Shown here: piece after piece, positions 10,653 to 40,190 of the stretch | Numbering within the stretch: the stretch's first letter is position 1 | Layout: every line of letters begins with the position of its first letter | From: Actinomycetes bacterium | Lineage (GTDB): Bacteria > Actinomycetota > Actinomycetes > Mycobacteriales > SCTD01 | DNA length: 64,000 nucleotides | Direction: 5' to 3' | Assembly: GCA_046565705.1 (NCBI GenBank) | Contig: JBKHYE010000114.1 | Span: 2,164-66,163 of the forward strand | Notes under the pieces: generated by a model | What the model was told of the DNA's origin: nothing | Databases searched by the model: none | What the model saw: the letters and a program-made list of their open reading frames with translations, nothing else | Position numbers and translations under genes: made by a program

Positions 10653-10686
10653 GACGACGGCCTCCCGGAAGGGGCTCGTGCGACGG

Positions 10687-14025: not shown

Positions 14026-14085
14026 GACGGAGCTGGTCCTCCTCGCCTGCGCGCTGTCGGGGCGGCCAGCGGCGACACTAGCGAG

Positions 14086-14673: not shown

Positions 14674-14699
14674 CCGCCCCGACCACCAGGAGTCCAGCC

Positions 14700-14774: not shown

Positions 14775-14792
14775 CGCTGCCGTCCCGGGAGG

Positions 14793-15770
14793 TCAGCGCC
14801 GCGCGGTCTCGGGGTGGCGCAGCCGCCAGCCCGCCCAGGCGCTCTCGACCATGTCGCGCAGGTCGTGCCGCGCCACGAAGCCCAGCGCCTCGCGGATCCG
14901 GTCGGCCGACGCCACCACCCGCGCCGGGTCGCCGGGTCGGCGCGGCGCGAACTCGGGCGTGACGTCGAGGCCGGTCACCTCGCCGATCGTGCGGACGACG
15001 TCGAGCACGCTGGCGCCCTCGCCGCGGCCGATGTTGTAGGTCGCCGAGCCGGCGCCGGCGTCGAGCGCCCGTGCGGCCGCCAGGTGCGCCGCGGCGATGT
15101 CGGCGACGTGCACGGAGTCGCGCACGCAGGTGCCGTCCGGCGTCGGGTAGTCGTTGCCGAACACCTGCGGCCGCTGACCCGCCTCCAGCCGCTCGAACAC
15201 CATCGGGACGAGGTTGAAGACGCCGACGTCGCCGAGCTCCGGGGTCGCGGCGCCGGCCACGTTGAAGTACCGCAGCGCCAGGGTCTGCAGCCCGTAGGCG
15301 CCGTCGCACGCCTGCAGGACCCACTCGCCGACCAGCTTGGTCTGGCCGTACGGCGACAGCGGCTCGCCGGGCGTGTCCTCGGTGACGACGTCGACGTCGG
15401 GCATGCCGTACGTCGCGGCGCTGGAGGAGAAGACGAACCGGTCGACGCCGGCGTCGCGGCAGGCGTCGAGCAGCGTGACCAGGCCGGTGAGGTTCTCGCG
15501 CCAGTACAGCAGCGGGTCGGCGACGGACTCGCCGACCTGCTTCTTCGCCGCGATGTGCACGACGCCGGTGACGCCGTGCCCGGTGAGCGTGCGGCGGACG
15601 AGGTCGCCGTCGAGGATGGTCCCCTGCACGAACGCGGCGCCCGGGTCGAGCCTAGCGGCGTCGCCGGTGGACAGGTAGTCGAGCGCGACGACGCGAGCGC
15701 CGTCGGCCACCATCGCCCGGACGACGTGGGCGCCGATGTAGCCGTCGCCGCCGGTCACGAGCCAGGTCAT
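14793..15770 (-). CDS. galE: UDP-glucose 4-epimerase
   Basis: ATG 15770. MTWLVTGGDGYIGAHVV (GxxGxxG), SSSAATYG, catalytic YGQTKLVGE (YxxxK), LRYFNVAGA. Confidence 0.9.
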   Translation of the reverse strand: MTWLVTGGDGYIGAHVVRAMVADGARVVALDYLSTGDAARLDPGAAFVQGTILDGDLVRRTLTGHGVTGVVHIAAKKQVGESVADPLLYWRENLTGLVTLLDACRDAGVDRFVFSSSAATYGMPDVDVVTEDTPGEPLSPYGQTKLVGEWVLQACDGAYGLQTLALRYFNVAGAATPELGDVGVFNLVPMVFERLEAGQRPQVFGNDYPTPDGTCVRDSVHVADIAAAHLAAARALDAGAGSATYNIGRGEGASVLDVVRTIGEVTGLDVTPEFAPRRPGDPARVVASADRIREALGFVARHDLRDMVESAWAGWRLRHPETARR

Positions 15771-15855
15771 GCGCCGGAGGCTAGGCGGACGTCCGACGGC
15801 GTGCGCGGAGGGTGTGTGTCAGGACGCGGACGCAGCGGGGGTCGGGGGGCGGGGG

Positions 15856-16140
15856 CTACTCGGCGCGGTACTCGACCTGCTCGATCTCGACGCGGACCTG
15901 CTGGATCCGGCTCAGCACCCGCGACCGCAGCTCGTCGGGCGCGTGCTCGCCGCCGCAGCACCGGGCGACGAGGGCCTTGACCGCCTGCTCGAGGCCGTAC
16001 TGCCGCAGGCAGGGCGCGCACTCGTCGAGGTGGATGCGGACCTTGTCGTGGTGCGCGCCGTCGTCCTCGCCGTCGAGGTAGAGGTAGACGGCCTCCAGCA
16101 CCTCGCTGCACGGGGTCTCGTGCGGGTCGCCGCAGCTCAC
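15856..16140 (-). CDS. rshA: Anti-sigma factor RshA/RsrA (zinc-associated ZAS, redox-sensing)
   Basis: GTG 16140 overlaps the sigH stop (GTGA). The 94-aa product has C..H...C..C ligands ([15 protein letters not shown]...[15 protein letters not shown]) and the [13 protein letters not shown] tail typical of RsrA/RshA. Confidence 0.9.
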
Positions 16141-16787
16141 GTCTCCGCCCCCTCTCCCGCTGCGCTGCTGGTCTGGGGAGCACCGGCGCGCACGAGCCCG
16201 CGCTCGACCGCGTAGTCGGTGAGCTTGGCGCGCAGCCCGCGACGCCCGCGGTGCAGCCGGCTCATCACGGTGCCGATCGGCGTGCCCATGATCTCGGCGA
16301 TCTCCTTGTAGGAGAAGCCCTCGACGTCGGCGAGGTAGACCGCCATCCGGAAGTCCTCCGGCAGCTCCTGCAGCGCCTGCTTGACGTCGCTGTCGGGCAG
16401 GTGGTCGAGCGCCTCCATCTCGGCGCTGCGCAGCCCGGTGGACGTGTGCGCCTCGGCCGCGGCGATCTGCCAGTCGGTGATCTCGTCGGTGGGCGACTGC
16501 AGCGGCTGGCGCTGCTTCTTGCGGTAGTTGTTGATGAAGGTGTTGGTCAGGATCCGGTAGAGCCAGGCCTTGAGGTTCGTGCCCTCCTCGAACTGGTGGA
16601 AGGCGGCGAAGGCCTTGACGAAGGTCTCCTGGACGAGGTCCTCGGCGTCGGCCGGGTTGCGCGTCATGCGCATCGCAGCGGTGTAGAGCTGGTCGAGGAA
16701 CGGCAGCGCGTCGCGCTCGAAGCGCGCTCGTCGCTGCTCGCTCGTCTCGCGGACGTCGTCGCGCGGGTCGGGGGCGACCGGGCTCAC
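16137..16787 (-). CDS. sigH: ECF sigma factor SigH/SigR (short form; a 64-codon longer form from GTG 16979 is possible)
   Basis: Last 216 codons of the 757-aa track [42 protein letters not shown]...[24 protein letters not shown]...[24 protein letters not shown] is co-linear with M. tuberculosis SigH (216 aa) from memory. Confidence 0.9.
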
Positions 16788-17037
16788 CTCGCTCGTCGGG
16801 GAACCGCTGGGCAGCGGCCGCCGAGACGATACGCCGACGGGGACCTCGCCGCGTCGGGCAGGACGGCCCCCGGGCCGGTCGGCCGGTCGGTCGGCGGCGC
16901 GGTGCCCCGGCCGGCCCGGGCCGGGGCGGACGGCGGCGCCGGCGACGGCTCGCCGGGGGTGCAGGGTGCTCGGGCGCACGGTCCGCCGTCTCCTCCCCCG
17001 CCACGGCCTGTCGGCTGCCGGGCGGCTGGCAGGCACC

Positions 17038-17063
17038 AACGCCGCCGGGCCGAGGGCGATTCC
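17038..17063 (-). promoter_or_regulatory. SigH/SigR-dependent promoter (GGAAT-N18-GTT) upstream of sigH-rshA
   Basis: The plus strand reads AAC(17038-17040)-N18-ATTCC(17059-17063). On the minus strand this is GGAAT-N18-GTT, an exact match to the SigR/SigH consensus, oriented toward sigH. Confidence 0.6.
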
Positions 17064-17132
17064 CGGGGCGCGGCGCGGACGCCGCAGGCGCCGGCCCGGC
17101 TGCCGGCCGCGGGCGCGGCCTACGATCCGGCC

Positions 17133-17795
17133 ATGGACGGCCACCACCCCGCAGTCGAGCAGTACCTCGAGACGGTGCTCGAGCTCGAGGAGGCCGGCAT
17201 CGTGCCGATGCGCGCCCGCATCGTGGAGCGGCTGGGGGTGTCGGCCCCGGCGGTGAGCGAGACGGTGAAGCGGCTCGAGCGCGAGGGCTACCTCACCCTC
17301 GACGACGAGCGGGTGCTGCACCTGACCGAGACCGGCCGGGCGTACGCGACGTCGATGCTGCGCAAGCACCGGCTGGCCGAGGTGCTGCTCGTCGACGTGC
17401 TCAAGGTGCCGTGGCCGCAGGTGCACGAGGAGGCCTGCCGGCTGGAGCACGCCATCAGCGACAACCTCGAGAAGCACCTGGTGGCGCTGCTCGACGACCC
17501 GGGCACCTGCCCGCACGGCAGCCCGATCCCCGGGTCCGCCAACGCGCCGACCGAGCAGGTGCGGCTCGAGAAGCTGTCGGCGGTCCCGGCCGGCGGGTCG
17601 TGCGTGGTGCGCCGCATCGACGAGCACCTCCAGACGCTCGTGCCGCGGATGGAGGAGCTCGAGGCGGCCGGGCTGATGCCCGGGACGCCGGTGCGCGTGC
17701 AGGAGAGCGCCGCGGGGCGGGTGCTGCTCGACGTCGACGGCGAGCCGGTCGAGATCGACGCGTCCGTCGCCGCCGAGGTCTACGTCAGCGTCTGA
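17133..17795 (+). CDS. DtxR/IdeR-family metal-dependent repressor with C-terminal SH3-like domain
   Basis: ATG 17133. [47 protein letters not shown]...[14 protein letters not shown]...HEEACRLEH is co-linear with IdeR. The Cys-Glu-His metal site (EACRLEH) is kept, but the IdeR Met10 position is Gln, so metal specificity is uncertain. Confidence 0.85.
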
Positions 17796-24208: not shown

Positions 24209-25312
24209 TCATGCGTCCGCCAAAGCGATGGTCTTCTCGACGTCCTGCCGGCGCGCTTCGAGCTCGCGCTTCTCGCGGTCGAGCGCCTCGGCGATGTCCT
24301 CGTCGGCCCTCATCAGCGCGCCGAGGTCGGTGCCGGCCATGTCGAGCACCCCCATGTCGGCGTAGGCCTTCTGCACCTTCTCGCCCCAGAGGCCGATGTC
24401 CTTGACGCACGGCACGATCCGCGTGAACAGCAGCGACTGGTAGAGCGTGAAGTACGGCGAGTGCTGGACGGCCTCGAGGCACGCGCGCACGTCCAGGCCC
24501 ATGTTCTGCCAGACCTCCTGCATGCGGAACCGGTCTCGCATGAGCCAGCAGCCCTCGACGACGAACTCCTCGCGCTCGGCGAGCTCCTTGCTGGACAGCT
24601 GGCTGTAGTAGTCGCGCAGCGCCAGCCGGCCGAACGCCACGTGCCGCGCCTCGTCCTGCATGACGTAGGCCAGGATCTGCTTCGGCAGCGGCTGCGTCGT
24701 CATGTCGCGCAGCAGCCCGAACGCGGCCAGCGCCAGCCCCTCGATGAGCACCTGCATGCCGAGGTAGGGCATGTCCCAGCGGCTGTCGGAGAGCGTGTCG
24801 TCCAGCAGCGACTTCAGGCTCGGGTTGATCGGGTAGACCAGCTCGACCTTCTCCTGCAGGAAGCGGGCGTAGGTCTCGGCGTGCCGCGCCTCGTCCATGG
24901 TCTGGGTGGCGGCGTAGAACTTGCTGTCGAGGTCGGGCACCGACTCGACGATCTTGGCCGAGCAGATCATCGCGCCCTGCTCGCCGTGCAGGAACTGGCT
25001 GAACTGCCAGGACGTCAGGTGCTGGCTGAGCTCGTCGATCGCCTTCTGGTCGCCCTCGAACCGCGCCCACTGGTCCGTGCCGTAGATCGAGATCGTCTCG
25101 ACCGGCAGCCCCAGCACGTTCGCCGGGTCGACGTCGACGTCCCAGTCGATGCGGTGGACCGAGTCCCACTGCTTGTCCTTGCCCTTCTGGTACAGGGCGA
25201 GCAGCCGGTCGCGGCCGTCGTCGTACTCCCAGGTGAACCGGGAGGCGCCCTGCATCTCGACGTCCCACGTCGCGTGCTCGACAGGGACGGTGTAGAGCTC
25301 GTGCGTGCTCAC
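24209..25312 (-). CDS. Ferritin-like diiron-carboxylate oxygenase family protein (AurF/R2-like fold)
   Basis: Last 367 codons of the 542-aa track ORF. GTG 25312 overlaps the TetR stop (GTGA). Two E-x2-H diiron motifs (TMDEARHAETYARF and VMQDEARHVAFG) plus additional Glu helices (FLHGEQGAM, VLIEGLALA). Confidence 0.75.
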   Translation of the reverse strand: MSTHELYTVPVEHATWDVEMQGASRFTWEYDDGRDRLLALYQKGKDKQWDSVHRIDWDVDVDPANVLGLPVETISIYGTDQWARFEGDQKAIDELSQHLTSWQFSQFLHGEQGAMICSAKIVESVPDLDSKFYAATQTMDEARHAETYARFLQEKVELVYPINPSLKSLLDDTLSDSRWDMPYLGMQVLIEGLALAAFGLLRDMTTQPLPKQILAYVMQDEARHVAFGRLALRDYYSQLSSKELAEREEFVVEGCWLMRDRFRMQEVWQNMGLDVRACLEAVQHSPYFTLYQSLLFTRIVPCVKDIGLWGEKVQKAYADMGVLDMAGTDLGALMRADEDIAEALDREKRELEARRQDVEKTIALADA

Positions 25313-25905
25313 TCGTGCTCCTCGTTCTCGGCAGGCAGGGGCAGCAGTCGGGCGACCAGGCGGGCGACGTCGTCGGCGACCTGCTCGGGGCGGCCGCCGG
25401 GCAGGACCAGGTGGGACAGCGTGAGCCGGGTGACGACGTCGGCGGCGAGGCGGACGTCGTCGGCCGGCAGCTGCGGCCACTGGGCCAGCAGCTGCGCAGT
25501 GGTGCGGCGCGCGGCGACCTCGTGCAGCTGCTCCGCGCGGCTGGTGATGTAGGGCAGCAGCCCGCCGCCGCCGTCGACCGAGCTGTCGGTCAGCACGGCC
25601 TTGAGCAGCGGGTTGTCGGCGGCCGCGCGCAGCGTGTACTCGACGCGGGCGCGCAGCGCCTCGGCCGGGCTCGCGTCGTGGCCGGCCCGCGCGGCGTCGG
25701 CGCCGTCGACGTAGCGCTCGGCCTCGCGCAGCGCGAGCGCCTGGGCGAGGCCGTCCTTGCTGCCGAACTCGTAGTACAGCGTCTGCCGGCTCAGCCCGGC
25801 GGCGCGCGCGACGTCGGCCATCCGCGTCCTGGCCCACTCGCCCGCCACCACCGCGTCCGCGGCGGCGTCGAGCAGCAGGTCCCGCGTCGGTGTGCGCTGC
25901 GCCAC
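25309..25905 (-). CDS. TetR/AcrR-family transcriptional regulator
   Basis: GTG 25905. N-terminal HTH RTRMADVARAAGLSRQTLYYEFGSKDGL. Translationally coupled to the diiron gene. Confidence 0.9.
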   Translation of the reverse strand: MAQRTPTRDLLLDAAADAVVAGEWARTRMADVARAAGLSRQTLYYEFGSKDGLAQALALREAERYVDGADAARAGHDASPAEALRARVEYTLRAAADNPLLKAVLTDSSVDGGGGLLPYITSRAEQLHEVAARRTTAQLLAQWPQLPADDVRLAADVVTRLTLSHLVLPGGRPEQVADDVARLVARLLPLPAENEEHE

Positions 25906-25959
25906 ACCCGCTACCCTGACACGGGCCGCCGCTTTGTCAAGACACCGCGGCCGACGGTG

Positions 25960-27051
25960 TCAGCCGGTCGGCCGCCCCTCAGCCGGCAGGTCCTGCTGCT
26001 CGCGCGGCGCCACCCGGACGACGACGACCCGGTCGGCCTTGCGCAGGCGCAGCGAGGTGGCGGCGTCGAACATCAGCGTCTGGCCGTCGCGGACGACTGC
26101 GACGACGAGGTCGCGCGTCTCGCGAGGGGCCAGCCCCACCTCCTCCCGCAGCACCTCGCGCTCGGTGAGCTCGAGGCCCTGGCCCGGGACGAGCAGGTCC
26201 TCGAAGATCGCGCCGGTCGACGGGCTGGCGACCGCGACGCCGAGCAGCCGGCCGGCAGCCTCCGACGACACGACGACGCCGTCCGCCCCCCCGTCGCGCA
26301 GCAGGCCGGCGTTCTCGCTCTCGCGCACCGCCGCGACGATGTAGGCGCCCTCGTTGTGCCGGCGCACGGTGAGCGTGACGAGCACGGCGGCGTCGTCGCG
26401 CGGGACCGCGACGATCACCCGCGCCGCCGTGTCGATCTCGGCCCGGCGGAGCACCTCCGGCCGGGTCCCGTCGCCGGCGATGGCCGCGATGCCGTCGTCG
26501 GTGGCGTCCGCGATGTGGTCCGGGTCGTTGTCGACCACGACGATCTGCGCGGGGTCGGCGCCGTCCTCGAGCAGCGCGCGCACGGCGCTGCGCCCCTTGG
26601 TCCCGTACCCGACGACGACCGTGTGCTCGCGCAAGGACTTCCTCCAGCGGTTCTGCCGGATCTGCTCCCTCGTGCGCTCGGTGAGCACCTCGAGCGTCGT
26701 GCCGACCAGCACGACGAGGAACAGGACCCGCAGGGGGGTGATGACGAAGATGTTCACCAGGCGCGCGGCGTCGCTCACCGGTGTGATGTCGCCGTAGCCC
26801 GTGGTGGAGAGGCTGACCGTGGAGTAGTAGACCGCGTCGAGGAAGGAGAGCCCGTCGCCGAGCTTGTCGGCGTAGCCGGCGCGGTCGAGCCACACGACCA
26901 CGGCCACCGACATCAGCACGACGAGCGCGACGACCATGCGGCGCAGCACCGCCGCGACCGGGCCGCGCTCGGACTCCGGGATGAGCAGCCGCGCGCCCAG
27001 CCGGCCCGCCGAGCGGGCCACCGGCTCGGTCGGCCGGTGCGTAGCGGTCAC
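25960..27051 (-). CDS. Potassium channel with cytoplasmic RCK/TrkA-N and TrkA-C domains
   Basis: Two TM segments flank the selectivity filter SLSTTGYGDITP. Rossmann motif VVVGYGTKGRSAVRAL. The C-terminal TrkA-C-like beta domain is also present. Confidence 0.88.
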   Translation of the reverse strand: MTATHRPTEPVARSAGRLGARLLIPESERGPVAAVLRRMVVALVVLMSVAVVVWLDRAGYADKLGDGLSFLDAVYYSTVSLSTTGYGDITPVSDAARLVNIFVITPLRVLFLVVLVGTTLEVLTERTREQIRQNRWRKSLREHTVVVGYGTKGRSAVRALLEDGADPAQIVVVDNDPDHIADATDDGIAAIAGDGTRPEVLRRAEIDTAARVIVAVPRDDAAVLVTLTVRRHNEGAYIVAAVRESENAGLLRDGGADGVVVSSEAAGRLLGVAVASPSTGAIFEDLLVPGQGLELTEREVLREEVGLAPRETRDLVVAVVRDGQTLMFDAATSLRLRKADRVVVVRVAPREQQDLPAEGRPTG

Positions 27052-27101
27052 CGGGCGAGCGTAGGCGCGCGGGTGGCGCGCGGCTGCGCGACACTCGACG
27101 C

Positions 27102-29039
27102 GTGCAGCCCGCCGCCGGTGCCGGCCCGTCCGCCGAGGGCGACGAGCACGACCTCGACGACCGCCCCGGCGACCCGGTGGTCGTCGAGCCGTGGCTCGGC
27201 GCGCCCGCCCGCTCGTACCGGCGCCGTCCCGGCAGCGTCAGCGCGGTGCTCGACCGGGCGGTGCTCCGGTGGCCGGACCGCACCGCGTTCGTCGACGTCG
27301 ACGGCACGTCGGTCGGCTACCGGGACTTCGCCGACCGGGTCGAGGTCGCGGCCCGCTCGCTGCGCGCCCGCGGGCTGCAGCCCGGTGACGCGGTGGCGGT
27401 CGCCTCCGGCAACACGCTCGCGCTGGCGACGGCGGTGTTCGCCTGCGCCCGCGCGCAGCTGGTGCTCGTCGGGCTGAACACGCGGCTCGCCCCGCCGCAG
27501 TGGGCCTACATGCTCGAGCACATGGGCGCCCGGCTCGCCCTCGGCAGCGCGGCGTTCCTCGCCGGGCTGCGGGAGGCCGGCGCCACGGGCGCCGAGCCGC
27601 TCGAGGAGGTGCTCGCGGAGGGCGGGCCGGCGCTGCTGGACGAGCCGCGGGACGAGGCGGCGACGTACGCGGTGGTGTTCACGTCCGGGACGACAGGACG
27701 GCCGAAGGCGTCGCAGGTGGTGCACCGCTGCTCGGTGCACAGCGCGATGAGCTACCAGCGGGTGCTGCGGCTCGGTACGGACGACGTCACGGCGGTGTGG
27801 TTCCCGCTGTACTACATCTCGGCGATGCACGCGCACGTGCTGCCGGCGATGCTGGCCGGCGCGACCTGCGTGCTGGCCGACACGTCGTCGCCGCGCGAGT
27901 TCGTCGACCTCCTCGAGCGGTACCGGGTCAGCTGGGCGTACGCCGTGCCGTCGTGGTGGCGGCTGTGCCTGCGCGTGCCGGAGCTGTCCCGCGACCGCCT
28001 CCCCGCGCTCACGCGCGTCGCAGCCGGCGGCGCGCCGTTCCCCGCGGACCTGCAGACGGCGCTGCGCGACCGGCTCGACGGCGTCCGCCTGCTCGACGTG
28101 TACGGCTTGTCGGAGACCCACTCGCCCGGCTGCATCGCGGACGACGACGACCTGCGCGCGCGGCCGGGCACCGTCGGCCGGCCGCTGGACTGCATGGAGG
28201 CCGAGATCCGCGACGACGACGGCCGGCCGCTCCCGGCGGGCGAGCCCGGGACGCTGTGGCTGCGCGGCTCGCTCGTGACGACCGGCTACGCGGGCGACGA
28301 CGAGGCCACGGCGGAGGCCGTCGTCGACGGGTGGTTCGACACGGGCGACGTCGCCCGCGTCGACCACGACGGCCGCGTCACCGTGCTGGACCGCACCAAG
28401 GACATGATCAACCGGGGCGGGACGAAGATCTTCTCGGCCGAGGTCGAGGAGCTGCTGCGGCAGCACCCGGCGGTCGAGGACGCGGCCGTCGTCGGGGTGC
28501 ACGACGCGCTCGCGGGCGAGGCGGTCGCGGCCTTCGTGGTCCCGCACGACACCGGGGCGCCGGCGGTGACGCCCGCCGAGGTGCGTGCGTGGGTGCGGGA
28601 GCGGATGGCCGACCATGCGGCTCCCAAGGTGGTCGAGCTCGTCGACGCGCTGCCGCGCAACGCGGTCGGCAAGACCGACAAGGCGGCGCTGCGGGCACGG
28701 CTGGGCGCCGGGCCGCCGACCTCCCCGGCGCCGGCCGCCGACCGGGTCGACAGCGGGGTCGTCCTCCACGCCCTGGCCGAGCCGCACCGCGCCGAGCTCG
28801 TCCGCCTGCTCGTCGACCGCCAGCTGCCGGTGCGCGACCTGGTCGCCGTCACCGGCATGGCGCAGCCGCTGGTGTCGCACCACCTGCGCGTGCTGCGCGA
28901 GGCCGGGCTCGTGGACAGCAGCACGCGGGCCGGGCTGTCGGTGTACCGGGTCCGGCCCGACACGCTGTCCGAGCTCGCCGACCGGCTGCAGGGCCTGGCC
29001 GCCCGGGCCGCCGGCACGGCGCGCACGACCCCGTGGTGA
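27102..29039 (+). CDS. Adenylate-forming (ANL) acyl ligase fused to a C-terminal ArsR/SmtB winged-helix DNA-binding domain
   Basis: ANL motifs VVFTSGTTGRPKA, VYGLSET, DGWFDTGD, DRTKDMINRGGTKI, LPRNAVGKTDK. After the linker GAGPPTSPAPAADR, the same frame gives LHALAEPHRAELVRLLVDRQLPVRDLVAVTGMAQPLVSHHLRVLREAGLVDSSTRAGLSVYRV. The 5' start (GTG 27102) is uncertain. Confidence 0.85.
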   Translation: MQPAAGAGPSAEGDEHDLDDRPGDPVVVEPWLGAPARSYRRRPGSVSAVLDRAVLRWPDRTAFVDVDGTSVGYRDFADRVEVAARSLRARGLQPGDAVAVASGNTLALATAVFACARAQLVLVGLNTRLAPPQWAYMLEHMGARLALGSAAFLAGLREAGATGAEPLEEVLAEGGPALLDEPRDEAATYAVVFTSGTTGRPKASQVVHRCSVHSAMSYQRVLRLGTDDVTAVWFPLYYISAMHAHVLPAMLAGATCVLADTSSPREFVDLLERYRVSWAYAVPSWWRLCLRVPELSRDRLPALTRVAAGGAPFPADLQTALRDRLDGVRLLDVYGLSETHSPGCIADDDDLRARPGTVGRPLDCMEAEIRDDDGRPLPAGEPGTLWLRGSLVTTGYAGDDEATAEAVVDGWFDTGDVARVDHDGRVTVLDRTKDMINRGGTKIFSAEVEELLRQHPAVEDAAVVGVHDALAGEAVAAFVVPHDTGAPAVTPAEVRAWVRERMADHAAPKVVELVDALPRNAVGKTDKAALRARLGAGPPTSPAPAADRVDSGVVLHALAEPHRAELVRLLVDRQLPVRDLVAVTGMAQPLVSHHLRVLREAGLVDSSTRAGLSVYRVRPDTLSELADRLQGLAARAAGTARTTPW

Positions 29040-29057: not shown

Positions 29058-29303
29058 GTGCAGCGCGATCAGGTCCTGACCGTCGTCCGCTCGGTCGCCG
29101 AGCGGCTGCTCGACGTGCCCGGCGACGAGCTGCAGGAGTCGACCCGGTTCGTCGACGACCTCGCCGTCGACTCGCTCGCGCTGGTCGAGTACGCGATGGC
29201 CCTCGAGGACGAGCTGAACGTGCGGCTGCCCGAGGACGAGCTCGCCGAGGCGCGGACGGTCGGTCAGCTGCTCGACCTGCTCACCGCGCGCGTCCCGGCC
29301 TGA
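29058..29303 (+). CDS. Stand-alone acyl/peptidyl carrier protein
   Basis: 81 aa. Phosphopantetheine site FVDDLAVDSLALVEYAMALEDEL (DSL). It starts 18 nt after the ligase stop. Confidence 0.88.
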   Translation: MQRDQVLTVVRSVAERLLDVPGDELQESTRFVDDLAVDSLALVEYAMALEDELNVRLPEDELAEARTVGQLLDLLTARVPA

Positions 29304-29305: not shown

Positions 29306-30073
29306 GTGCTGCTCGTCGGGCGCCGGGTGCTCGTCACCGGCGTGCTGACCGAGTCGTCGCTCGCCGGCGCGGTCGTCCGCGAGGCGCGGGCGCAGGGCGC
29401 CGAGGTGCTGCTCACCTCACCGGTCTGCCGGGCGCACCGCGTCACGAGCCGCGTCGCGCCCCGGCTCGGCGTCGACGCACCGGTGCTCGAGCTCGACGTC
29501 GAGCTGCCGGACGACCTGGCAGCGCTGCCCGACGCCGTCCGCGAGGCCGGGTGGGACGGCGTGGACGGCCTGGTGCACGCGATCGCCTACCTCGGCGACG
29601 GCGACCGGTCCGCCGGCTTCGCCGCTGCGCCCTGGGACGCCGTCGCGCCGGCGCTGCAGACGGCGACGTGGTCGATGGCGGCGGTCGTGCACGCGCTGCG
29701 GCCGCTGCTGACCCGGGGGTCCTCGGTCGTCGGGCTGACCCTCGACCCGTCACGGGCCCGCGCCGGGGCGGACTGGCTCCCCGTCGCGCGGGCGGGTCTG
29801 GCGGCCGTGACCCGGCAGCTCGCGCGCGAGGTCGGGCCGGACGGCGTCCGGGTGAACCTGGTCGCCTCGGGGCCGGCCCGCACGATGCTGTCGCGGGCGC
29901 TGCCCGAGACCGAGGCGCTGGTCGCCGAGTGGGCCGAGCGCGCCCCGCTCGGCTGGGACGCCGACGACTCCGCGGCGGTCGGCCGCACCGTCGCCGCGCT
30001 GCTGTCGGACCTGCTGCCGGCCACGACCGGAGACGTCGTGCACGCCGACGGCGGCCGGCACGCCGTCGAGTAG
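29306..30073 (+). CDS. FabI/InhA-like SDR paralogue with non-canonical active-site residues
   Basis: Co-linear with the housekeeping FabI at 37508..38272 (RRVLVTGVLTESSLA, VRVNLVASGPARTM, RAPLGWDADD). The block DFDARVAWPSYDWMGVAKAG of that enzyme reads TLDPSRARAGADWLPVARAG here. Confidence 0.8.
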   Translation: MLLVGRRVLVTGVLTESSLAGAVVREARAQGAEVLLTSPVCRAHRVTSRVAPRLGVDAPVLELDVELPDDLAALPDAVREAGWDGVDGLVHAIAYLGDGDRSAGFAAAPWDAVAPALQTATWSMAAVVHALRPLLTRGSSVVGLTLDPSRARAGADWLPVARAGLAAVTRQLAREVGPDGVRVNLVASGPARTMLSRALPETEALVAEWAERAPLGWDADDSAAVGRTVAALLSDLLPATTGDVVHADGGRHAVE

Positions 30074-30114: not shown

Positions 30115-31164
30115 GTGACGACCGCCGCCCCCGCGCGTGACCTGCTGGCCGACACCTCGGCCCTGTGCCAGGAGCTCGCCGCCGACGCCCGCCGGCTCGA
30201 GCGCGACGGTGTCACCCGCGACAACGTCCGGCGGCTGGCCGACGCGGGGCTGCTCGCGGTCTACGGCCCGCCGGAGCTCGGCGGCGCTCCGCCGGCCGAG
30301 CAGCGCCAGGTGGCCGAGCTGCTCGCCGGCGCCAGCCCCGACGCCTGGTTCGTCTGGTACCAGCACGGCCCGGTCGTGCGCTTCCTCGCCGCCAGCGACA
30401 ACGAGGACCTCAAGGCCCGCTGGCTGCCGGTGCTCTGCTCCGGCGACGCCGTCGGCGGCGTCGCGTGGAGCAACCTGCGCACCGCCCGCCCGTCGGTGTC
30501 CGCGCAGCGGGCCGGCTCCGGCTGGGCACTGACCGGTCCGCAGCCGTGGTGCACCGGCTGGGGCATGCACGACGCGCTGTTCGTCGGCGGCCGCACGGTG
30601 CCCGACGACGGCGGCGCCCCCGAGGTGGTGTTCGGGATCGTGCCGGCCGACCGGCCGGGGCTGGTGGGGCAGGGCGAGCTCGAGCTCGCCGCGATGGGCG
30701 GCACGTCGACCCACGCCGTCCGCTACGAGGGCCTGGTGGTGCACGACGACGAGCTGATCCTCCGCAAGGACTTCGCCGCGTGGGCCGCGGCCGACACCGT
30801 GATGAACCGCAACGTGCAGCCGTCGACGTTCGGCATCGCGCTCGCGGCACTCGAGCTGCTCCAGGCGGCGTCGCCGGCCACCGCGTCCGCGCTGCGCGAG
30901 CGGGTGCTGTCCGTGCGCGAGCGGGCCTACCGGCTGATGGACGAGGTCGACCCGGCCGAGGCCGGTGACGAGCGGCTCGCGCTGCGGGCCTCGGCTCTCG
31001 TCCTCGGCGTCGAGGCGTGCACCGCGCTGGTCGCCGCGCGCGGCGGGCGCGGCATGGGTCTGGACGACCCGGCGCAGCGGCTGCTGCGCGCTGCGGCCTT
31101 CCAGCTGGTGCACGCGCAGGCCGCGCACGTCCGGGAGGCCACGCTCACCGCGCTGGCCGGCTGA
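30115..31164 (+). CDS. Acyl-CoA dehydrogenase-fold flavoprotein (short, type-2-like)
   Basis: GTG 30115, the last 349 codons of track ORF 29551..31164. ACAD-like layout (LADAGLLAVYGPPELGG, WFVWYQHGPVV, GWALTGPQPWCTGWG, TSTHAVRYEGLVV). I could not find the usual C-terminal catalytic Glu context. Confidence 0.7.
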   Translation: MTTAAPARDLLADTSALCQELAADARRLERDGVTRDNVRRLADAGLLAVYGPPELGGAPPAEQRQVAELLAGASPDAWFVWYQHGPVVRFLAASDNEDLKARWLPVLCSGDAVGGVAWSNLRTARPSVSAQRAGSGWALTGPQPWCTGWGMHDALFVGGRTVPDDGGAPEVVFGIVPADRPGLVGQGELELAAMGGTSTHAVRYEGLVVHDDELILRKDFAAWAAADTVMNRNVQPSTFGIALAALELLQAASPATASALRERVLSVRERAYRLMDEVDPAEAGDERLALRASALVLGVEACTALVAARGGRGMGLDDPAQRLLRAAAFQLVHAQAAHVREATLTALAG

Positions 31165-31166: not shown

Positions 31167-32711
31167 GTGGAGCCGGGGCTCGTCGAGGAGGTCGTCGGCG
31201 GCGTCCGCGTCCGCTGCTGGGCGACCCGGCCGACCTCGCTCGTCGACCTCCTCGGGCAGGCGCTGTGTCGCTCCGCCGACGACGTGCTGCTCGTCGATCC
31301 GGCGCTCGGCCGGACCGTCACCTACGCGCAGTTCGCGGCGCTCGTCGAGGGCGCCGCCGAGACGCTGTCGGGCCGCGGGCTGCGACCGGGCGACCGCGTG
31401 GCGGTGCTGGTGCGCAACGGGCTCGCGGCCGCCGTCGCGCTGTGGGCGTGCGCGCGCGCCGGCCTCGTGCACGTCGGGCTGCCCGCCGACGCGCCGCCGG
31501 CCCGGCTGGCGGAGCTGGTGGAGCTCACCGGTCCCGCGCTGGTCGTCTGCGCGCCGGAGCTGCGGCCGCTGGCGGCCGACACCGGGCTCGACCCGCAGGA
31601 CGCCGCCGAGGTCCTCCTCGGCGCCGAGCGCCCGTGGGAGCACGGCCGGGCGCTGCCCGACGAGGACGAGACGTACGCGCTTCTCGCCACCAGCGGCACC
31701 ACCGGCCGGCCCAAGGCGGTCCGGCTGACCGGCCGGATGGTCGGCCACGCCGCCGTCGCCTACACCCGGCTCCTGGGCCTCACTCCGCGCGACCGCACCG
31801 CGATCCACCTGTCGTTCGCGTGGGTGTCGGGGCACGTCACGCAGCTGGCGCCGGCCATGTGGTCCGGCGGCTCGGCGGTGACGATGCCGGCGTTCAGCGC
31901 GTCGGCGCTGCTCGAGGTCTGCCGCGAGCACGGCGTCAGCTGGCTCGACGTCGTGCCGAGCATCTGGGAGCTGCTGCTGCGGCAGCCGGGCTTCCGCGCC
32001 GCCGAGCTGCCGGCCGTGCGGGCCGCCGTGTTCGGCGGCGCACCGGCGCCGCCCGGCACGCTCGAGCGGGTCCGCGAGCGGGTGCCGCACCTGCGGCTGC
32101 TCGACGTGTACGCGCAGTCCGAGACGTGCGCGCCGGTGACCGTGCTGGGCGACCTCGACGCGCTGCGCAAGCCCGGCACCGTCGGCACGCCCGTGCCGTA
32201 CTGCGACGTGCGCGTCGTCGGACCGGACGGCGTCGCGGTGCCGACGGGCGGCACGGGTGAGATCGAGGTCCGGTCGCCGACCGTGACCCCGGGCTACTGG
32301 CCGCCCGACGTCGCGCCGGTCACGGACGGCTGGCTGCGCACCGGTGACGTCGGACGGCTCGACGACGAGGGCTTCCTGACCGTCAGCGGGCGCGCGGTCG
32401 ACCTCGTGATCCGCGGCGGCGTGAACGTCTTCCCGGCGGAGGTCGAGCGGGCGCTGCTGGCGACCGGTGCGCTGGCCGACGCCGCCGTCGTGGGGGTGCC
32501 GTCTGCGGTCAGCGGCCAGAACGTGGCGGCGGCCGTCGTCCCGCTGCCCGGGCACGACGTCGACGTGCTGGCGCTCCAGCGCGCCGTCCGCGACGCGCTC
32601 GGCGCGCACGCCGTGCCACGACCGCTGCGCGTCGTCGACGACCTGCCGCGCGGGCGCAACGACAAGCTCGACCGGGCGGCGGTCGCCGCGCTGCTCGCGA
32701 CGCCGCGCTGA
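31167..32711 (+). CDS. Second adenylate-forming (ANL) acyl ligase
   Basis: GTG 31167, 2 nt after the upstream stop. LLATSGTTGRPKA, VYAQSET, DGWLRTGDVG, DLVIRGGVNVFP, LPRGRNDKLDR. Confidence 0.85.
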   Translation: MEPGLVEEVVGGVRVRCWATRPTSLVDLLGQALCRSADDVLLVDPALGRTVTYAQFAALVEGAAETLSGRGLRPGDRVAVLVRNGLAAAVALWACARAGLVHVGLPADAPPARLAELVELTGPALVVCAPELRPLAADTGLDPQDAAEVLLGAERPWEHGRALPDEDETYALLATSGTTGRPKAVRLTGRMVGHAAVAYTRLLGLTPRDRTAIHLSFAWVSGHVTQLAPAMWSGGSAVTMPAFSASALLEVCREHGVSWLDVVPSIWELLLRQPGFRAAELPAVRAAVFGGAPAPPGTLERVRERVPHLRLLDVYAQSETCAPVTVLGDLDALRKPGTVGTPVPYCDVRVVGPDGVAVPTGGTGEIEVRSPTVTPGYWPPDVAPVTDGWLRTGDVGRLDDEGFLTVSGRAVDLVIRGGVNVFPAEVERALLATGALADAAVVGVPSAVSGQNVAAAVVPLPGHDVDVLALQRAVRDALGAHAVPRPLRVVDDLPRGRNDKLDRAAVAALLATPR

Positions 32712-32727: not shown

Positions 32728-33477
32728 TCACCCGGCCAGGACCCGCTCGAGCACCTCGGCCTTGAGCTTGACGAAGTCGGGGTCGGCGAGCACCTCCCGG
32801 CCGCGGTCGGCGCCGAACGGCACCAGCAGCTCGTCGACGACGACCGCCGGCCGGTGCGAGAGCAGCGCCAGCCGGTCGCCGAGCAGCAGCGCCTCCTCGA
32901 CGTCGTGCGTGACGAGCAGCGTCGTCGTCGGCCGCTCGGCGAGCAGCGCGCGCAGCCACTCGTGCATGCGCAGCCGGGTCTGCGCGTCGAGCGCGCCGAA
33001 CGGCTCGTCGAGCAGCAGCACCGGCGGCCGGTTCGCCAGGACCTGGGCGATCGCGGCGCGCTGCCGCATGCCGCCGGACAGCTGCTTGGGCAGCGCCTGC
33101 TCGAAGCCGGTGAGGCCGGTGGCGGCGAGCACGTCGTCGACGACGGCGCGCACCTCGTCGGCAGGCCGCCGCTGCGCCCGCGGGCCGAACGCCAGGTTGT
33201 CGCGCAGCGTCAGCCACGGGAACAGCCCGCCGGCCTGGGCCACCATCCCGCGCTCCGGCGACGGCCCGGTGACCGGCCGGCCGTCGAGCAGCACCCGCCC
33301 GGCCGACGGCGCCTCGAAGCCGGCGAGGACGCGCAGCAGCGTCGACTTGCCGCACCCGCTCGGCCCGAGCACGGCGAGCACCTCGGCGGGCCGCGCCTCG
33401 ACCGAGACGCCGTCGAGCACGAGCAGCCCGCCGAAGCTCTTCTCGACGCCGTCGGCGACGAGGTCGCCGCCCCTCAC
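32728..33477 (-). CDS. ABC transporter ATP-binding protein (NitT/TauT family)
   Basis: Walker A GPSGCGKST, Q-loop, signature LSGGMRQR, Walker B LLLDEPFGALD, H-loop VTHD. Confidence 0.92.
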   Translation of the reverse strand: MRGGDLVADGVEKSFGGLLVLDGVSVEARPAEVLAVLGPSGCGKSTLLRVLAGFEAPSAGRVLLDGRPVTGPSPERGMVAQAGGLFPWLTLRDNLAFGPRAQRRPADEVRAVVDDVLAATGLTGFEQALPKQLSGGMRQRAAIAQVLANRPPVLLLDEPFGALDAQTRLRMHEWLRALLAERPTTTLLVTHDVEEALLLGDRLALLSHRPAVVVDELLVPFGADRGREVLADPDFVKLKAEVLERVLAG

Positions 33478-33484
33478 GCCCCCC

Positions 33485-34351
33485 TCACCTATCGGCCCAG
33501 CGGACCCACGGCCGGCTGACGGCGCGCAGCAGCCAGTCGGCGAGCAGGCCGACGACGGCGAACACCAGGATGCCGACGATCACCTGGTCGGTGCGGCCGC
33601 TCTCGCGCGCGGCGTTCATCATCGCGCCGACGCCGAGGCTCGCGCCGGACAGCTCGGCGACGATGACGACGGTCCACGCGAGGGTCAGCGACAGCCGCAG
33701 GCCGGTGACCACCTCGGGCAGCGCGCTCGGCAGGTAGATCCGGCGCCACAGCCACCGCCGCGGCGTGCCGAGCATGCGCGCGGTCTCGACGTGCGCCCTC
33801 GGCACGCGCGCCGTCGCGTCGCCGACCGCCACCAGCACCGGCCAGAGCGCGCCGACGAAGATGATCGCCCGGGCCGAGCCCTCGCCGATGCCGAACCACA
33901 CGAGCACGAGGGGCAGCCAGGCGAACAGCGGCACCGCGCGCAGCGCGTTCAGCACCGGGTCCAGCAGGTCGCGGGCCAGCGACGACAGACCGAGGGCCAG
34001 CCCGACGACGGTCCCGACGACGACGGCCGCGACCCAGGACACGGCGGCCCGCTGCAGGCTGGCCGCCAGGTGGTCCCAGCCGGTGCCGGTGAACGGCACG
34101 ACGCCGGCCAGCCGCAGGCCGCCCTCGTCGCCGGCGAAGAAGGCGACGAGCTGCTCGCCGACGACGGTCGGCGCCGGCAGCAGGCGCGGCGAGAAGACGC
34201 CGGCCGTCGCGACGAGCTGCCAGCCGACCAGCAGGAGGGCGGGCACGGCGACGCCGAGCAGCCGGCGGTAGCGCGGCCGGCGCCGGCGCCGGCCTGCGGG
34301 CGCGGCCCCGGGCACGGCCTCCAGCAGCGTCTCCAGCCGCACCGCCGGCAC
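33485..34351 (-). CDS. ABC transporter permease (NitT/TauT family)
   Basis: Six hydrophobic segments. The conserved cytoplasmic loop ETARMLGTPRRWLWRRIYLPSALP is typical of SsuC/TauC-type permeases. Confidence 0.88.
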   Translation of the reverse strand: MPAVRLETLLEAVPGAAPAGRRRRRPRYRRLLGVAVPALLLVGWQLVATAGVFSPRLLPAPTVVGEQLVAFFAGDEGGLRLAGVVPFTGTGWDHLAASLQRAAVSWVAAVVVGTVVGLALGLSSLARDLLDPVLNALRAVPLFAWLPLVLVWFGIGEGSARAIIFVGALWPVLVAVGDATARVPRAHVETARMLGTPRRWLWRRIYLPSALPEVVTGLRLSLTLAWTVVIVAELSGASLGVGAMMNAARESGRTDQVIVGILVFAVVGLLADWLLRAVSRPWVRWADR

Positions 34352-34354
34352 CGG

Positions 34355-35392
34355 CTAGACGTCCCAGTACTCGCGGGCGAACAGCTTCTCGACGTCGGGC
34401 TCCTGCGCGATGCCGCCCTGCTGAACGAGCATCGTCGCGGCACCCTTCACCTGCTCGACGCGCGCGTCGTCGAACTCCCAGCGCGCGCCGATGTTGTCGA
34501 GCACCTGCTCGTAGACCGGCTCGGAGAAGCCGAACGAGTCCACCAGCAGCGACTTCCAGACCTGCGGGTCGTTCTCGCCGCCCGGGCTGAGCAGCTCCGC
34601 GGCGTCCTTCTGCATCCGGCAGACGGCGCGCACGACGTCGGGACGCTCCACCAGCACCTTCGCCGACGCCCAGTTCGCGGTGTTGAAGTCGCCCACCGCG
34701 GTCGTGCCCGCCTCCGGCAGGCGCACGCCGTCGGCCTCCACGACCGCCTGTGTCACAGGGGGCTCCGAGCCCATGAAGGCGTCGACGTCGCCGCGCGAGA
34801 ACGCCGTGACGTGGTCGGCGAAGCCGAGCGGGATGCCCTCGACGTCCTTGCCGAGCTCCAGGCCGGCCGAGCGCAGGACGTCGTTGAGGATGAGCACCTG
34901 CAGGGTCGGCGGCGGGACGGCGATCCGCTTGCCCCGCAGGTCCGCGACCTCCTCGACGATCCCGCGCTTGCCGACCAGCCCGAGGCCGCCGCGCGAGATC
35001 ATCCCGACGATCCGCGAGGTGATCAGGGACGGGTCCTGCGCCAGGGCGATGATCGGCGTGTACGGCGCGAGCAGGCCGAAGTCGAGCGAGCCGCTCTCCA
35101 GCCCGTCCTGCACCTCGGTGGCGCTCTTGACCGGGATGACCTCGACGGTGATGCCCTCGGGGGCGAAGCGGTCCCAGAACAGCGCGGACGAGGCGTGGTT
35201 CTTGGCGTACACGCAGGTGCGCACGGTGTACGGCTCGAGCGCCTCACCGGACGCCGCGGCGCGCGGGGCGGCGGCCGCCGACCCGTCGGCGCCGCCACCT
35301 GACCCACAGGCGGCGAGCAGGGCAGCGGCACCGGCACCGGCGGACAGGCCGAGGAACCGGCGCCGGGTCAGGTCGCCGAACGGAGAGGGCAC
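34355..35392 (-). CDS. ABC substrate-binding lipoprotein (NMT1/THI5-SsuA-like) with Tat signal
   Basis: GTG 35392 after GGAGGA. LTRRRFLGLSAGAGAAALLAAC combines a twin-arginine motif with a lipobox Cys. The periplasmic-binding fold is consistent with the two downstream transporter genes. Confidence 0.85.
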   Translation of the reverse strand: MPSPFGDLTRRRFLGLSAGAGAAALLAACGSGGGADGSAAAAPRAAASGEALEPYTVRTCVYAKNHASSALFWDRFAPEGITVEVIPVKSATEVQDGLESGSLDFGLLAPYTPIIALAQDPSLITSRIVGMISRGGLGLVGKRGIVEEVADLRGKRIAVPPPTLQVLILNDVLRSAGLELGKDVEGIPLGFADHVTAFSRGDVDAFMGSEPPVTQAVVEADGVRLPEAGTTAVGDFNTANWASAKVLVERPDVVRAVCRMQKDAAELLSPGGENDPQVWKSLLVDSFGFSEPVYEQVLDNIGARWEFDDARVEQVKGAATMLVQQGGIAQEPDVEKLFAREYWDV

Positions 35393-37507: not shown

Positions 37508-38272
37508 CTACACCCCGACGGCGCTGAACCCGCCGTCGACGAACACCGTCGTGCCGGTGGTGCGCGGGAACCAGTCGCTGAGCAGCGCGACGCACGCCTT
37601 GGCGACGGGCTCGGCGTCGTCGGCGTCCCAGCCGAGCGGCGCGCGCGCGTCCCACACCCGCTCGAGCTGCTCGAAGCCCGGGACCGAGCGCGCTGCCATC
37701 GTCCGCAGCGGGCCGGCCGCGACCAGGTTGACGCGGACGCCCCGCGGACCGAGGTCGCGGGCGAGGTAGCGGCAGGCGGACTCGAGGCCGGCCTTGGCCA
37801 CGCCCATCCAGTCGTAGGACGGCCAGGCCACGCGGGCGTCGAAGTCGAGCCCGACGTACGAGCCGCCGTCCTGCAGGAGCGGCAGGCAGGCGCGCGCGAG
37901 GGCCGGGAACGACCAGGTGCTCACCTGCAGCGCGGTGGCGACGTCCTCCCACGAGGTGTCGAGCAGGCCGTTCCCCAGCGCGCTCGGCGGCGCGAACCCG
38001 ATGGCGTGCAGGACGCCGTCGAGCCCGCCGACGTGCTCGCGCAGCCGGTCCGGCAGGGCGGCGAGGTCGTCCTCGCTGGTGACGTCGAGCTCGCCGCCGG
38101 GCGGCTGCCCCGGCAGCCGCCTCGCGACCCGCCGCGTGAGCTGCATCGGACGGCCGAAGCTCGAGAGCACCACCGTCGCGCCCTGCTCGACGGCGAGCCG
38201 CGCGACGGCGGCGGCGATCGAGCGCTCGGTGAGGACGCCGGTGACGAGCAGGCGCCTGCCCTCGAGGATCAC
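37508..38272 (-). CDS. fabI: Enoyl-ACP reductase (NADH), FabI/InhA type
   Basis: GTG 38272 overlaps the acp stop (GTGA). LLVTGVLTERSIA. Catalytic block DFDARVAWPSYDWMGVAKAGLES has the Phe/Tyr/Lys of InhA. VRVNLVAAGPLRTMAA. Confidence 0.9.
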   Translation of the reverse strand: MILEGRRLLVTGVLTERSIAAAVARLAVEQGATVVLSSFGRPMQLTRRVARRLPGQPPGGELDVTSEDDLAALPDRLREHVGGLDGVLHAIGFAPPSALGNGLLDTSWEDVATALQVSTWSFPALARACLPLLQDGGSYVGLDFDARVAWPSYDWMGVAKAGLESACRYLARDLGPRGVRVNLVAAGPLRTMAARSVPGFEQLERVWDARAPLGWDADDAEPVAKACVALLSDWFPRTTGTTVFVDGGFSAVGV

Positions 38273-38520
38273 GCCGCGGCGTTCACCTTGGCGGCGATGA
38301 CGTCGACGAAGGCGCCGATCGTCTTGACGTCGACGAGCTCCTCCTCGGGCAGCTCGATGCCGAAGTGGTCCTCGAGGTCCATGGTGAGCTCGACCAGCGA
38401 CAGCGAGTCGACGTCGAGGTCGCTGACGAAGGACTTGTCCTCCTGCACCTGCTCGGCGTCGACCTCGAGCAGCGCGACGGCCTTCTCCCGCAGGACCTGC
38501 AGCACCTCGGCACGCTCCAT
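38269..38520 (-). CDS. acpP: Acyl carrier protein
   Basis: ATG 38520. 83 aa. FVSDLDVDSLSLVELTMDLEDHFGIELP carries the DSL phosphopantetheine site. Confidence 0.92.
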   Translation of the reverse strand: MERAEVLQVLREKAVALLEVDAEQVQEDKSFVSDLDVDSLSLVELTMDLEDHFGIELPEEELVDVKTIGAFVDVIAAKVNAAA

Positions 38521-38559
38521 GGCGCGCCAGGCTAGTGGCGCCCGGCGCTGCGCGCGCGC

Positions 38560-40190
<1,631 letters not shown>

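Follow-up and report, generated by a model that had tools for sequence, protein, structure and literature searches.

Can a protein of the FabI/InhA family remain an enzyme after the tyrosine and the lysine of its active site have been lost? FabI and InhA are among the best-studied antibacterial targets, and their Tyr-Lys motif is treated as defining. The question is raised by a gene at positions 29306-30073 (+ strand) of a 64,000-nucleotide stretch of DNA from an Actinomycetes bacterium (contig JBKHYE010000114.1; this whole stretch is referred to below as the window), which encodes a FabI-like protein in an operon with two AMP-forming acyl ligases, an acyl carrier protein (ACP) and a protein of the acyl-CoA dehydrogenase (ACAD) fold. 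An earlier note on this DNA had described the catalytic triad as replaced by Leu, Ala and Arg, and had explained this either by a pseudo-enzyme or by altered reductase chemistry. On the evidence of its sequence and of those of its relatives, we place the protein in an undescribed clade that is derived from FabI and selectively maintained, that lacks the Tyr-Lys motif and that keeps the cofactor site. The fold and the ancestry are ordinary; the conserved loss with its graded intermediates, the partner pathway and the mis-annotation are what is noteworthy. Full-text literature searches for a FabI pseudoenzyme or for a FabI lineage without Tyr and Lys returned no description, and the portions of a 2022 review of bacterial enoyl reductases that answer to a few relevant terms contain no Tyr/Lys-less paralogue and note "few indications of paralogy" for InhA (PMC9260719).

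A FabI-like protein without the catalytic Tyr-Lys pair

The open reading frame (ORF) at 29306-30073 is a real gene, because its GC content by codon position (0.84/0.56/0.97, with GC3 at 0.97) is typical for a genome of 75% GC; the window as a whole has an actinobacterial GC content of 75.5%. The gene starts with GTG and encodes 255 amino acids, and the identical protein is found in the databases (P0001) as "MAG: SDR family oxidoreductase [Actinomycetes bacterium]", where MAG denotes a metagenome-assembled genome and SDR the short-chain dehydrogenases/reductases. It carries the Rossmann domain of the SDR family (Pfam adh_short_C2, PF13561, 5.6e-48), and its top match in the PDB is InhA (phmmer, E = 6e-56, 41-43% identity). 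Against the NCBIfam equivalog model for FabI, NF005908, the protein scores 277.4 bits, under the cut-off of 299, while a canonical FabI encoded about 7 kb away in the same window (37508-38290, - strand) scores 399.1 bits and has Phe, Tyr and Lys intact (F-Y-K; F149, Y158 and K165 of InhA). The two copies align as easily as the earlier note held, with 52% identity over 254 residues and two gaps, neither of them in the catalytic block (BLASTP). The motifs it listed as common to both, GRR(L/V)LVTGVLTE(R/S)S(I/L)A, VRVNLVA(A/S)GP, APLGWDADD and ALLSD, are exactly as quoted, as are the catalytic-block strings, GLTLDPSRARAGADWLPVARAGLAA in the ORF at 29306-30073 and GLDFDARVAWPSYDWMGVAKAGLES in the canonical copy.

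The assignment of the catalytic positions is secure. The FabI-like protein and InhA align without gaps through the catalytic block (from VVGL to LAAV in the former and from IVGM to LESV in the latter; phmmer), so that F149 corresponds to Leu146 (codon CTC, 29741-29743), Y158, the catalytic Tyr, to Ala155 (GCG, 29768-29770) and K165 to Arg162 (CGG, 29789-29791). Where the FabI active-site motif reads Y-x2(x)-M-x3-K, the protein has A155, L158 and R162. No shift of register can restore Tyr and Lys, because lysine is absent from the entire protein and Y95 is its only tyrosine. The AlphaFold2 model (pLDDT 82.8, pTM 0.86) agrees with the ungapped alignment, its strand 135-146 and helix 157-179 being placed as the register predicts, and superposes on InhA structures with a TM score of 0.89 (Foldseek); the structure-based check thus upholds the register and finds no Tyr or Lys equivalents. 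The Leu-Ala-Arg reading therefore holds, yet to speak of a replaced triad overstates the first of its three members. The Phe149 position is variable in canonical FabIs, with Leu in 4 of 73 and Val or Tyr in others, and F149->Leu is therefore not diagnostic; judging from this comparison, the informative changes are those at Tyr158 and Lys165.

In its general build the protein resembles InhA of M. tuberculosis (PDB 1BVR, 1ENY, 2AQ8), with which it shares the Rossmann SDR fold, the Gx5SxA motif, D64-V65, G192-P193, T196 and DPSRA. It is unlike InhA in having Ala for Y158, Arg for K165, Leu for M161 and Leu for F149, a substrate-binding loop of 17 instead of 27 residues, a one-residue Pro insertion and an invariant Cys in the F41 loop, polar or charged residues at pocket positions 103, 194 and 215, and a gene that lies outside the mabA-inhA context of type II fatty acid synthesis (FAS-II). 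The likeness to canonical actinobacterial FabI (NF005908) extends to length, loop lengths and motifs, and the tree described below derives the protein from within that family; the differences lie in the score (277 against 299 bits), in the missing Y-x6-K and in an operon of AMP-ligase, ACP and ACAD-like genes in place of fabD, fabG and acp. The protein is clearly derived from FabI, but it is not to be called an enoyl-ACP reductase, because it lacks the Y-x6-K motif and falls short of the equivalog cut-off.

A Lys-less clade within actinobacterial FabI

The Tyr/Lys pair is absent from all of the best 120 database homologues (64-100% identity), and the Lys-less group as a whole comprises at least 130 homologue clusters at 90% identity, all from actinobacterial MAGs or metagenomes; the named members, every one from a MAG, are assigned to Frankiales, Frankiaceae, Mycobacteriales and Actinomycetota. 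When 1.84 billion representatives at 50% identity were searched with a profile, one sequence from the group was recovered at 397 bits, the next match scored 293 bits, and nearly all of the remaining matches examined beyond it were F-Y-K. Hence, the Lys-less sequences form a compact clade inside actinobacterial FabI. A profile search of isolate genomes returned canonical FabIs at no more than 50% identity and no clade member among the matches listed, a result that does not by itself show absence from isolates. A further 29 sequences were obtained by searching with the basal member P0098, among them F-Y-K or F-W-K relatives that carry the clade's S-P-x-C-R loop (P0461-P0462, P0465, P0468, P0471-P0472, P0474-P0477, P0479-P0480, P0482, P0484, P0488). 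These share the Cys-Arg signature and are 65-73% identical to P0098, and they differ from the clade in keeping Lys165, Tyr158 or Trp158, and the canonical helix start WMG(V/I)(A/G)K. A metagenome search with one of them, P0479, found none of this sister branch, and of the clade only one member, L094 (M-Q-Q), among the matches listed. Four of these relatives (P0468, P0471, P0480, P0488) have Trp for the catalytic Tyr with Lys kept (motif GWGWMGIGK), and represent another non-canonical FabI variant.

To relate these groups we used a neighbour-joining tree from whose distances the catalytic columns had been left out. All 130 Lys-less sequences fall into one clade that contains no Lys; its sister is a group of 13 SPxCR proteins, of which nine have F-Y-K and four F-W-K, then come two further F-Y-K SPxCR proteins as next sister, and outside these branches lie ordinary "GR"-loop FabIs, including the housekeeping copy of the window. 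As the SPxCR sister branches are still F-Y-K or F-W-K, the tree points to a single loss of Lys, followed by repeated replacement of Tyr. Position 165 holds Gln in 67, Arg in 50 and His in 9 of the 130 members and never Lys, and position 158 is occupied by Q70, L20, A13, S7, H7 and Y6; Tyr158 thus survives in only six members, P0098 (L-Y-H) and a small F-Y-Q/M/L group. A hydrogen-bond donor (Q/R/H) is found at 165 in 126 of 130 members, and 92 of 130 have a residue capable of hydrogen bonding at 158. The two positions are paired, in that small residues (A/S/V) at 158 always go with R or H at 165 and large ones (L/M) always with Q or H; the window protein sits in a derived L-A-R/L-S-R sub-clade. 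Taken together, the sequences form a graded series from F-Y-K through F-W-K and Y-x-Q/H to Q/Q, Q/R and A/R, and these intermediates record the order in which the catalytic residues were lost. The S-P-x-C-R signature, which includes a one-residue Pro insertion, lies after strand beta2 in the loop where InhA F41 contacts the adenine ribose; its cysteine, Cys41 (TGC, 29426-29428), is invariant in the clade alignment, and the F-Y-K and F-W-K sisters have it too. Together with W83, Y95, W110, Q118 and W122, it belongs to the invariant residues of the clade's own.

The residues that hold the cofactor have been kept throughout. The InhA contacts G14, S20, A22, D64 and G192-P193 (G12, S18, A20, D64 and G189-P190 in the window protein) do not vary in the clade, 115 of 116 members have V65, and T196 (T193 here) is Thr in 126 and Ser in 4 of 130, so that the Gly-rich motif Gx5SxA and the D64-V65, G192-P193 and T196 contacts are those of a FabI across about 35% sequence divergence. 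The earlier claim of a retained nucleotide-binding N-terminus is borne out for the whole clade, and binding of NAD(P)(H) is probably retained. The acyl pocket, in contrast, has changed in a consistent direction, towards polar or bulkier residues, most of them fixed or prevalent: L103 has become Arg in 75 of 116 members, F215 is replaced by His, Arg or Thr and I194 by Gln, His or Ala, and A198->Leu and A98->Leu are nearly fixed. These substitutions suggest a predicted ligand pocket that would be smaller or narrower, and more polar, than the fatty-acyl tunnel. The replacement of Lys by Gln, Arg or His across the family, of which Lys->Arg in the window protein is one instance, keeps a hydrogen-bonding side chain at position 165; the InhA mutants K165Q and K165R are reported to behave much like wild type (Parikh et al. 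1999).

The clade is also maintained by selection. Pairwise dN/dS of the FabI-like gene against orthologues at 79-91% identity is 0.14-0.28. Between the window and the closely related locus L088 it is 0.28 for the FabI-like gene, 0.21 for the housekeeping FabI and 0.09-0.61 for neighbouring genes, figures that are meaningful only in comparison with one another, since dS is compressed at 97% GC3 and absolute omega is overestimated. No fewer than 130 clusters at 90% identity, drawn from many samples, have uninterrupted ORFs, and the gene is under purifying selection. We compared 73 diverse canonical FabIs with 116 clade members and found only three positions that are at least 90% conserved in the former and variable in the latter, S123, Y158 and K165; the M161 position is fixed as Leu in the clade. 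Parsimony gives 21 steps within the clade for position 158 (79th percentile) and 12 for position 165 (62nd percentile), against 0 for Cys41 and 3 for Thr196. Because the rates at 158 and 165 are above the median and those at Cys41 and Thr196 low, the release of constraint is specific to the catalytic pair. The loss of ancestral essential residues, together with purifying selection across many lineages with at least 130 intact representatives, is what one finds in pseudoenzymes, and the clade offers a natural experiment in which the InhA scaffold persists without its catalytic pair.

One practical consequence concerns annotation. Database entries for the clade usually treat it as ordinary FabI; the names in use are "SDR family oxidoreductase", "enoyl-ACP reductase FabI" and "meromycolic acid enoyl-ACP reductase", of which the last two amount to systematic mis-annotation. 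The NCBI and JGI pipelines name P0028, P0088, P0089, P0098, P0007 and others as FabI-type reductases. Some Lys-less members thus evidently pass annotation thresholds, and they are a source of false FabI calls in metabolic reconstructions from MAGs.

The operon and the possible roles of the protein

The FabI-like gene is the third of five genes separated by short gaps of 2-41 nucleotides. The first encodes an AMP-forming acyl ligase with a C-terminal helix-turn-helix (HTH) domain of ArsR type (27102-29039, +; AMP-binding 4e-76, AMP-binding_C, HTH_5 4.9e-13), the second an ACP of 81 amino acids with a DSL serine motif (29058-29303, +; PP-binding 2.6e-13), which ends two nucleotides before the FabI-like start; the fourth encodes the ACAD-fold protein (30115-31164, +; 349 amino acids) and the fifth a second AMP-forming acyl ligase (31167-32711, +; AMP-binding 6e-71). 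FabI-like, ACAD-like and AMP-ligase genes occur together in 11 of the 12 distinct contexts examined, and the second AMP-ligase is found beside the ACAD-like gene wherever the latter was examined. The arrangement of the window is common to its close relatives (L087, L088 from GCA_035540755.1, L089, L001), whereas the distant members L002, L003, L004 and L091-L094 have the FabI-like/ACAD-like/AMP-ligase core with the ACP present or absent and with different surroundings; the M-Q-Q type, L094, has the usual neighbours. Most clade members have no adjacent ACP gene. The survey of contexts points to a conserved, uncharacterised operon in soil actinobacteria that have yet to be cultured, in which AMP-ligases are accompanied by an ACAD-fold protein and in some cases by an ACP.

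The constant neighbour of the FabI-like protein belongs to a compact, divergent family (247 matches at E <= 1e-5), and its homologues and those of the FabI-like protein come from shared contigs. Only its N-terminal ACAD domain passes the Pfam threshold (Acyl-CoA_dh_N, 9e-9), with weak matches to the middle and type-2 C-terminal domains; for the type-2 domain, 25 of 35 members give a weak match. The AlphaFold2 model (pLDDT 92.8) has a TM score of about 0.8 to IVD and SCAD, and the protein is only about 20% identical to these or to any other solved ACAD. Foldseek ranks ordinary acyl-CoA dehydrogenases first; by sequence the top PDB match is TdsC, a homologue of DszC (phmmer, 5.9e-9), and MsuC, Rv3094c and DszC are among the profile matches. 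The protein retains WCTGWG, the motif that contacts the flavin. Its profile alignment with IVD, which is weak, has an invariant His332-Ser at the position of MCAD Glu376 and Gln234 near that of IVD Glu254, so that the protein appears to be without the usual catalytic Glu and may not be a dehydrogenase. An organosulfur role, with a 3-sulfinopropionyl-CoA desulfinase-like ACAD served by the adjoining NMT1-type transporter, was considered and dropped, as the matches were weak (3e-4; Foldseek rank 50).

The reading that we tentatively favour, while giving it slightly less than an even chance, is that the FabI-like protein still works as an enzyme and depends on NAD(P)H, its pocket having been rebuilt with more polar residues and its substrate or chemistry altered. 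It would be a neofunctionalised descendant of actinobacterial FabI/InhA. The S-P-x-C-R lineage would have split from canonical FabI, with early branches keeping F-Y-K, and one sub-branch would have lost the cofactor-holding Lys once, never to regain it, after which Tyr was replaced repeatedly. The InhA-like Rossmann SDR fold would have been kept and NAD(P)(H) very probably bound, with the acyl tunnel narrowed and made more polar, and hydride would pass from NAD(P)H to something different from a simple fatty enoyl-ACP. This acceptor may be made within the operon itself, from an acid activated by the AMP-ligase or ligases, carried on a dedicated ACP in the sub-clade of the window and processed by the adjacent ACAD-fold flavoprotein, while Gln, His, Ser, Arg or water may take the place of the carbonyl-polarising Tyr, or its role may no longer be needed. 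In the MbtM-MbtL-MbtN and RedM-RedO-RedW systems an acid is loaded by an AMP-ligase on a free-standing carrier protein, where an enzyme of ACAD fold modifies it; among the NCBIfam matches there is a weak one to RedW. The logic of the operon is like that of these trios, which differ in having no FabI-like component.

Three observations lead us to prefer an altered enzyme over a pseudoenzyme: the cofactor apparatus and Thr196 have stayed fixed across about 35% divergence, both former catalytic positions are hydrogen-bonding in most members, and the pocket changes are directional and specific to the clade. The clade-specific combinations at 158 and 165 also fit a pocket that is still in use. Turnover without Tyr is chemically possible, as the Tyr158 mutants of InhA keep 0.16-1.8% of kcat (Y158S 0.16%, Y158F 1.8%) and T196 is itself important for catalysis (PMC6222099). 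Several points weigh against this preference. The Ala at 158 in the window protein cannot form a hydrogen bond, above-median rates of change at 158 and 165 are also expected from relaxed constraint, and conserved cofactor residues would be expected just as much of a protein that binds NAD without catalysis. The apparent lack of a catalytic Glu in the ACAD-like neighbour counts on the same side, as do two variant loci: in the L005/L006 clade an aldehyde dehydrogenase and a separate ArsR gene stand in place of the ACAD-like gene, and at L090 an ACAD-like gene and an AMP-ligase are present but the FabI-like gene, the first ligase and the ACP are all missing.

The chief rival, unlikely in our view and still a serious one, is that the FabI-like protein is a true pseudoenzyme, a non-catalytic binding, scaffold or sensing subunit that might associate with the ACAD-fold protein, with the ACP or with a ligase, or might sense NAD(H) or an acyl ligand. 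Such a role would explain why the catalytic Lys is absent in 130 of 130 members and Tyr in 124 of 130, why S123, Y158 and K165 alone turned variable, which places the release of constraint exactly on the catalytic apparatus, and why these sites evolve at above-median rates while the rest of the protein remains under purifying selection. It also fits the Ala at 158 here, considering how little activity Y158F and Y158S retain in InhA (PMC6222099), and the tight, persistent adjacency to one partner gene. The cofactor contacts and Thr196, invariant or nearly so, the restriction of position 165 to hydrogen-bond donors and the directional, clade-specific rather than random substitutions in the pocket argue for catalysis instead. 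SDR proteins that bind NAD(P)(H) without a Tyr-Lys pair exist in both forms, as a sensor (NmrA) and as a hydride donor to flavins (BLVRB/flavin reductase), and both belong to other SDR subfamilies, have no detectable specific relationship to the FabI-like protein and are not known to descend from the FabI lineage. Of the earlier note's two explanations, both remain in play: the conserved loss of Tyr and Lys, the purifying selection and the cofactor elements agree with either, and the data do not decide between them. The enoyl-carrier binding role that it attached to the first fares poorly, given the more polar acyl pocket and the lack of an adjacent ACP gene in most members.

The Lys-less clade might, quite improbably, be a new enzyme class on the InhA scaffold, for example a flavin reductase for an ACAD-type monooxygenase or the user of a stalled, Tyr-less mechanism. 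In InhA Y158F a covalent NADH-enoyl C2-ene adduct builds up (PMC6222099); the stalled variant would put such adduct chemistry to use on an acid bound to a carrier, as part of an acyl-activating pathway in uncultured Frankiales/Mycobacteriales. The first of these examples deserves separate discussion as an NAD(P)H:flavin reductase that would feed the ACAD-fold neighbour, itself a two-component monooxygenase of DszC/MsuC type. Hydride transfer to a flavin needs neither Tyr nor Lys, as in the SDR-fold flavin reductase BLVRB. The TdsC, MsuC, Rv3094c and DszC matches and the weak type-2 C-terminal domain of the ACAD-like protein are in keeping with this idea, as is the impression that neither usual Glu base position holds a carboxylate; the operon has no other flavin reductase gene, an NMT1-type transporter often adjoins it, and the new Arg, His and Gln of the pocket could bind a flavin phosphate. 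However, the top-ranking folds for the ACAD-like model are those of ordinary acyl-CoA dehydrogenases, the FabI-like gene occurs in L005/L006 with no ACAD-like partner and the ACAD-like gene in L090 with no FabI-like one, two AMP-ligases and an ACP would be left without a role, and we know of no flavin reductase in the FabI family. We regard this flavin reductase role as a long shot.

Similarly improbable is an ordinary enoyl-ACP/CoA reductase, slow or relying on substitute residues, that serves the ACP of the operon. The measurable activity of the InhA Tyr158 mutants (PMC6222099) leaves room for it, basal members of the clade retain Tyr, K165Q and K165R reportedly leave InhA much like wild type, and the ACP gene directly precedes the FabI-like gene here. 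However, the acyl tunnel has been remodelled with Arg, His and Gln, Ala155 cannot polarise a thioester, a canonical FabI lies 7 kb away, the adjacent ACP gene is missing in most members, and an active enoyl reductase beside an acyl dehydrogenase-like enzyme would be futile. A self-resistance or decoy FabI directed against a FabI-targeting natural product was set aside, as there is no biosynthetic cluster nearby; the resistant FabI isozymes known to us keep the catalytic pair. Finally, a decaying duplicate, with a strain-specific loss of function on its way to a pseudogene, has nothing but the missing catalytic residues in its favour and is ruled out for practical purposes by the clade-wide loss of the pair in at least 130 intact clusters, dN/dS of 0.14-0.28, the clade's own invariant residues and conserved synteny, so that the survey of orthologues disposes of strain-specific decay.

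Variants of the locus and its wider surroundings

The first AMP-ligase carries its ArsR/SmtB-type HTH_5 domain at residues 561-606. L087, L088 and L089 have the same fusion; in L005/L006 the ArsR is a separate downstream gene. A ligase fused to a DNA-binding domain suggests that the operon could be autoregulated in a substrate-dependent manner. In L001 (positions 7080-7730 and 9851-11401; JGI contig of P0018) both AMP-ligases are called as fragments of 216, 327 and 170 amino acids, which suggests assembly frameshifts and not real truncations. In L089, about 6.5 kb with GGDEF, EAL, histidine kinase and response regulator genes (10774-17376) lies between the FabI-like gene and the ACAD-like/AMP-ligase pair, and the operon can therefore be split without gene loss. 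The L090 locus (9001-11612 and 14722-16655) is syntenic, with EPSP synthase, RsgA, AurF, TetR and channel genes. Its contig holds a second ACAD-like paralogue (41% identity) that adjoins a FabD-like acyltransferase, and a 240-amino-acid gene next to this paralogue has no Pfam match and is not a FabI relative.

Upstream of the operon in the window lies a divergent module (24209-27237, -), with genes for an AurF-like di-iron protein (24209-25309), a TetR regulator with TetR_C_35 (25309-25959) and a TrkA_N/ion-channel protein of K-channel type (25960-27237; all Pfam). The same module is also upstream in L003, L005, L087-L090 and L093. The closest solved match of the AurF-like protein reaches only E = 7.5e-4 (PDB).

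On the other side the operon adjoins a binding-protein ABC transporter of NMT1 type (32728-35392, -; Pfam NMT1/NMT1_2/Phosphonate-bd), as it also does in L005/L006, L087, L088, L091 and L093. Binding proteins of this type resemble SsuA and TauA of sulfonate-uptake systems, so that the transporter may import the substrate of the pathway. Beyond it follow a PNP_UDP_1 protein, a Zn-dependent alcohol dehydrogenase (Zn-ADH) and then the cluster of the canonical FabI, with an ACP (38269-38559), FabG (38560-39318) and FabD (39258-40190; Pfam). The association with FAS-II genes is thus found for the canonical copy, which sits with fabD, fabG and acp, and not for the FabI-like gene. The canonical fatty-acid synthesis genes (37508-40190, -) are ordered fabD - fabG - acp - fabI. 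The window thereby contains two ACP genes (29058-29303 and 38269-38559) and two genes of FabI type within 10 kb.

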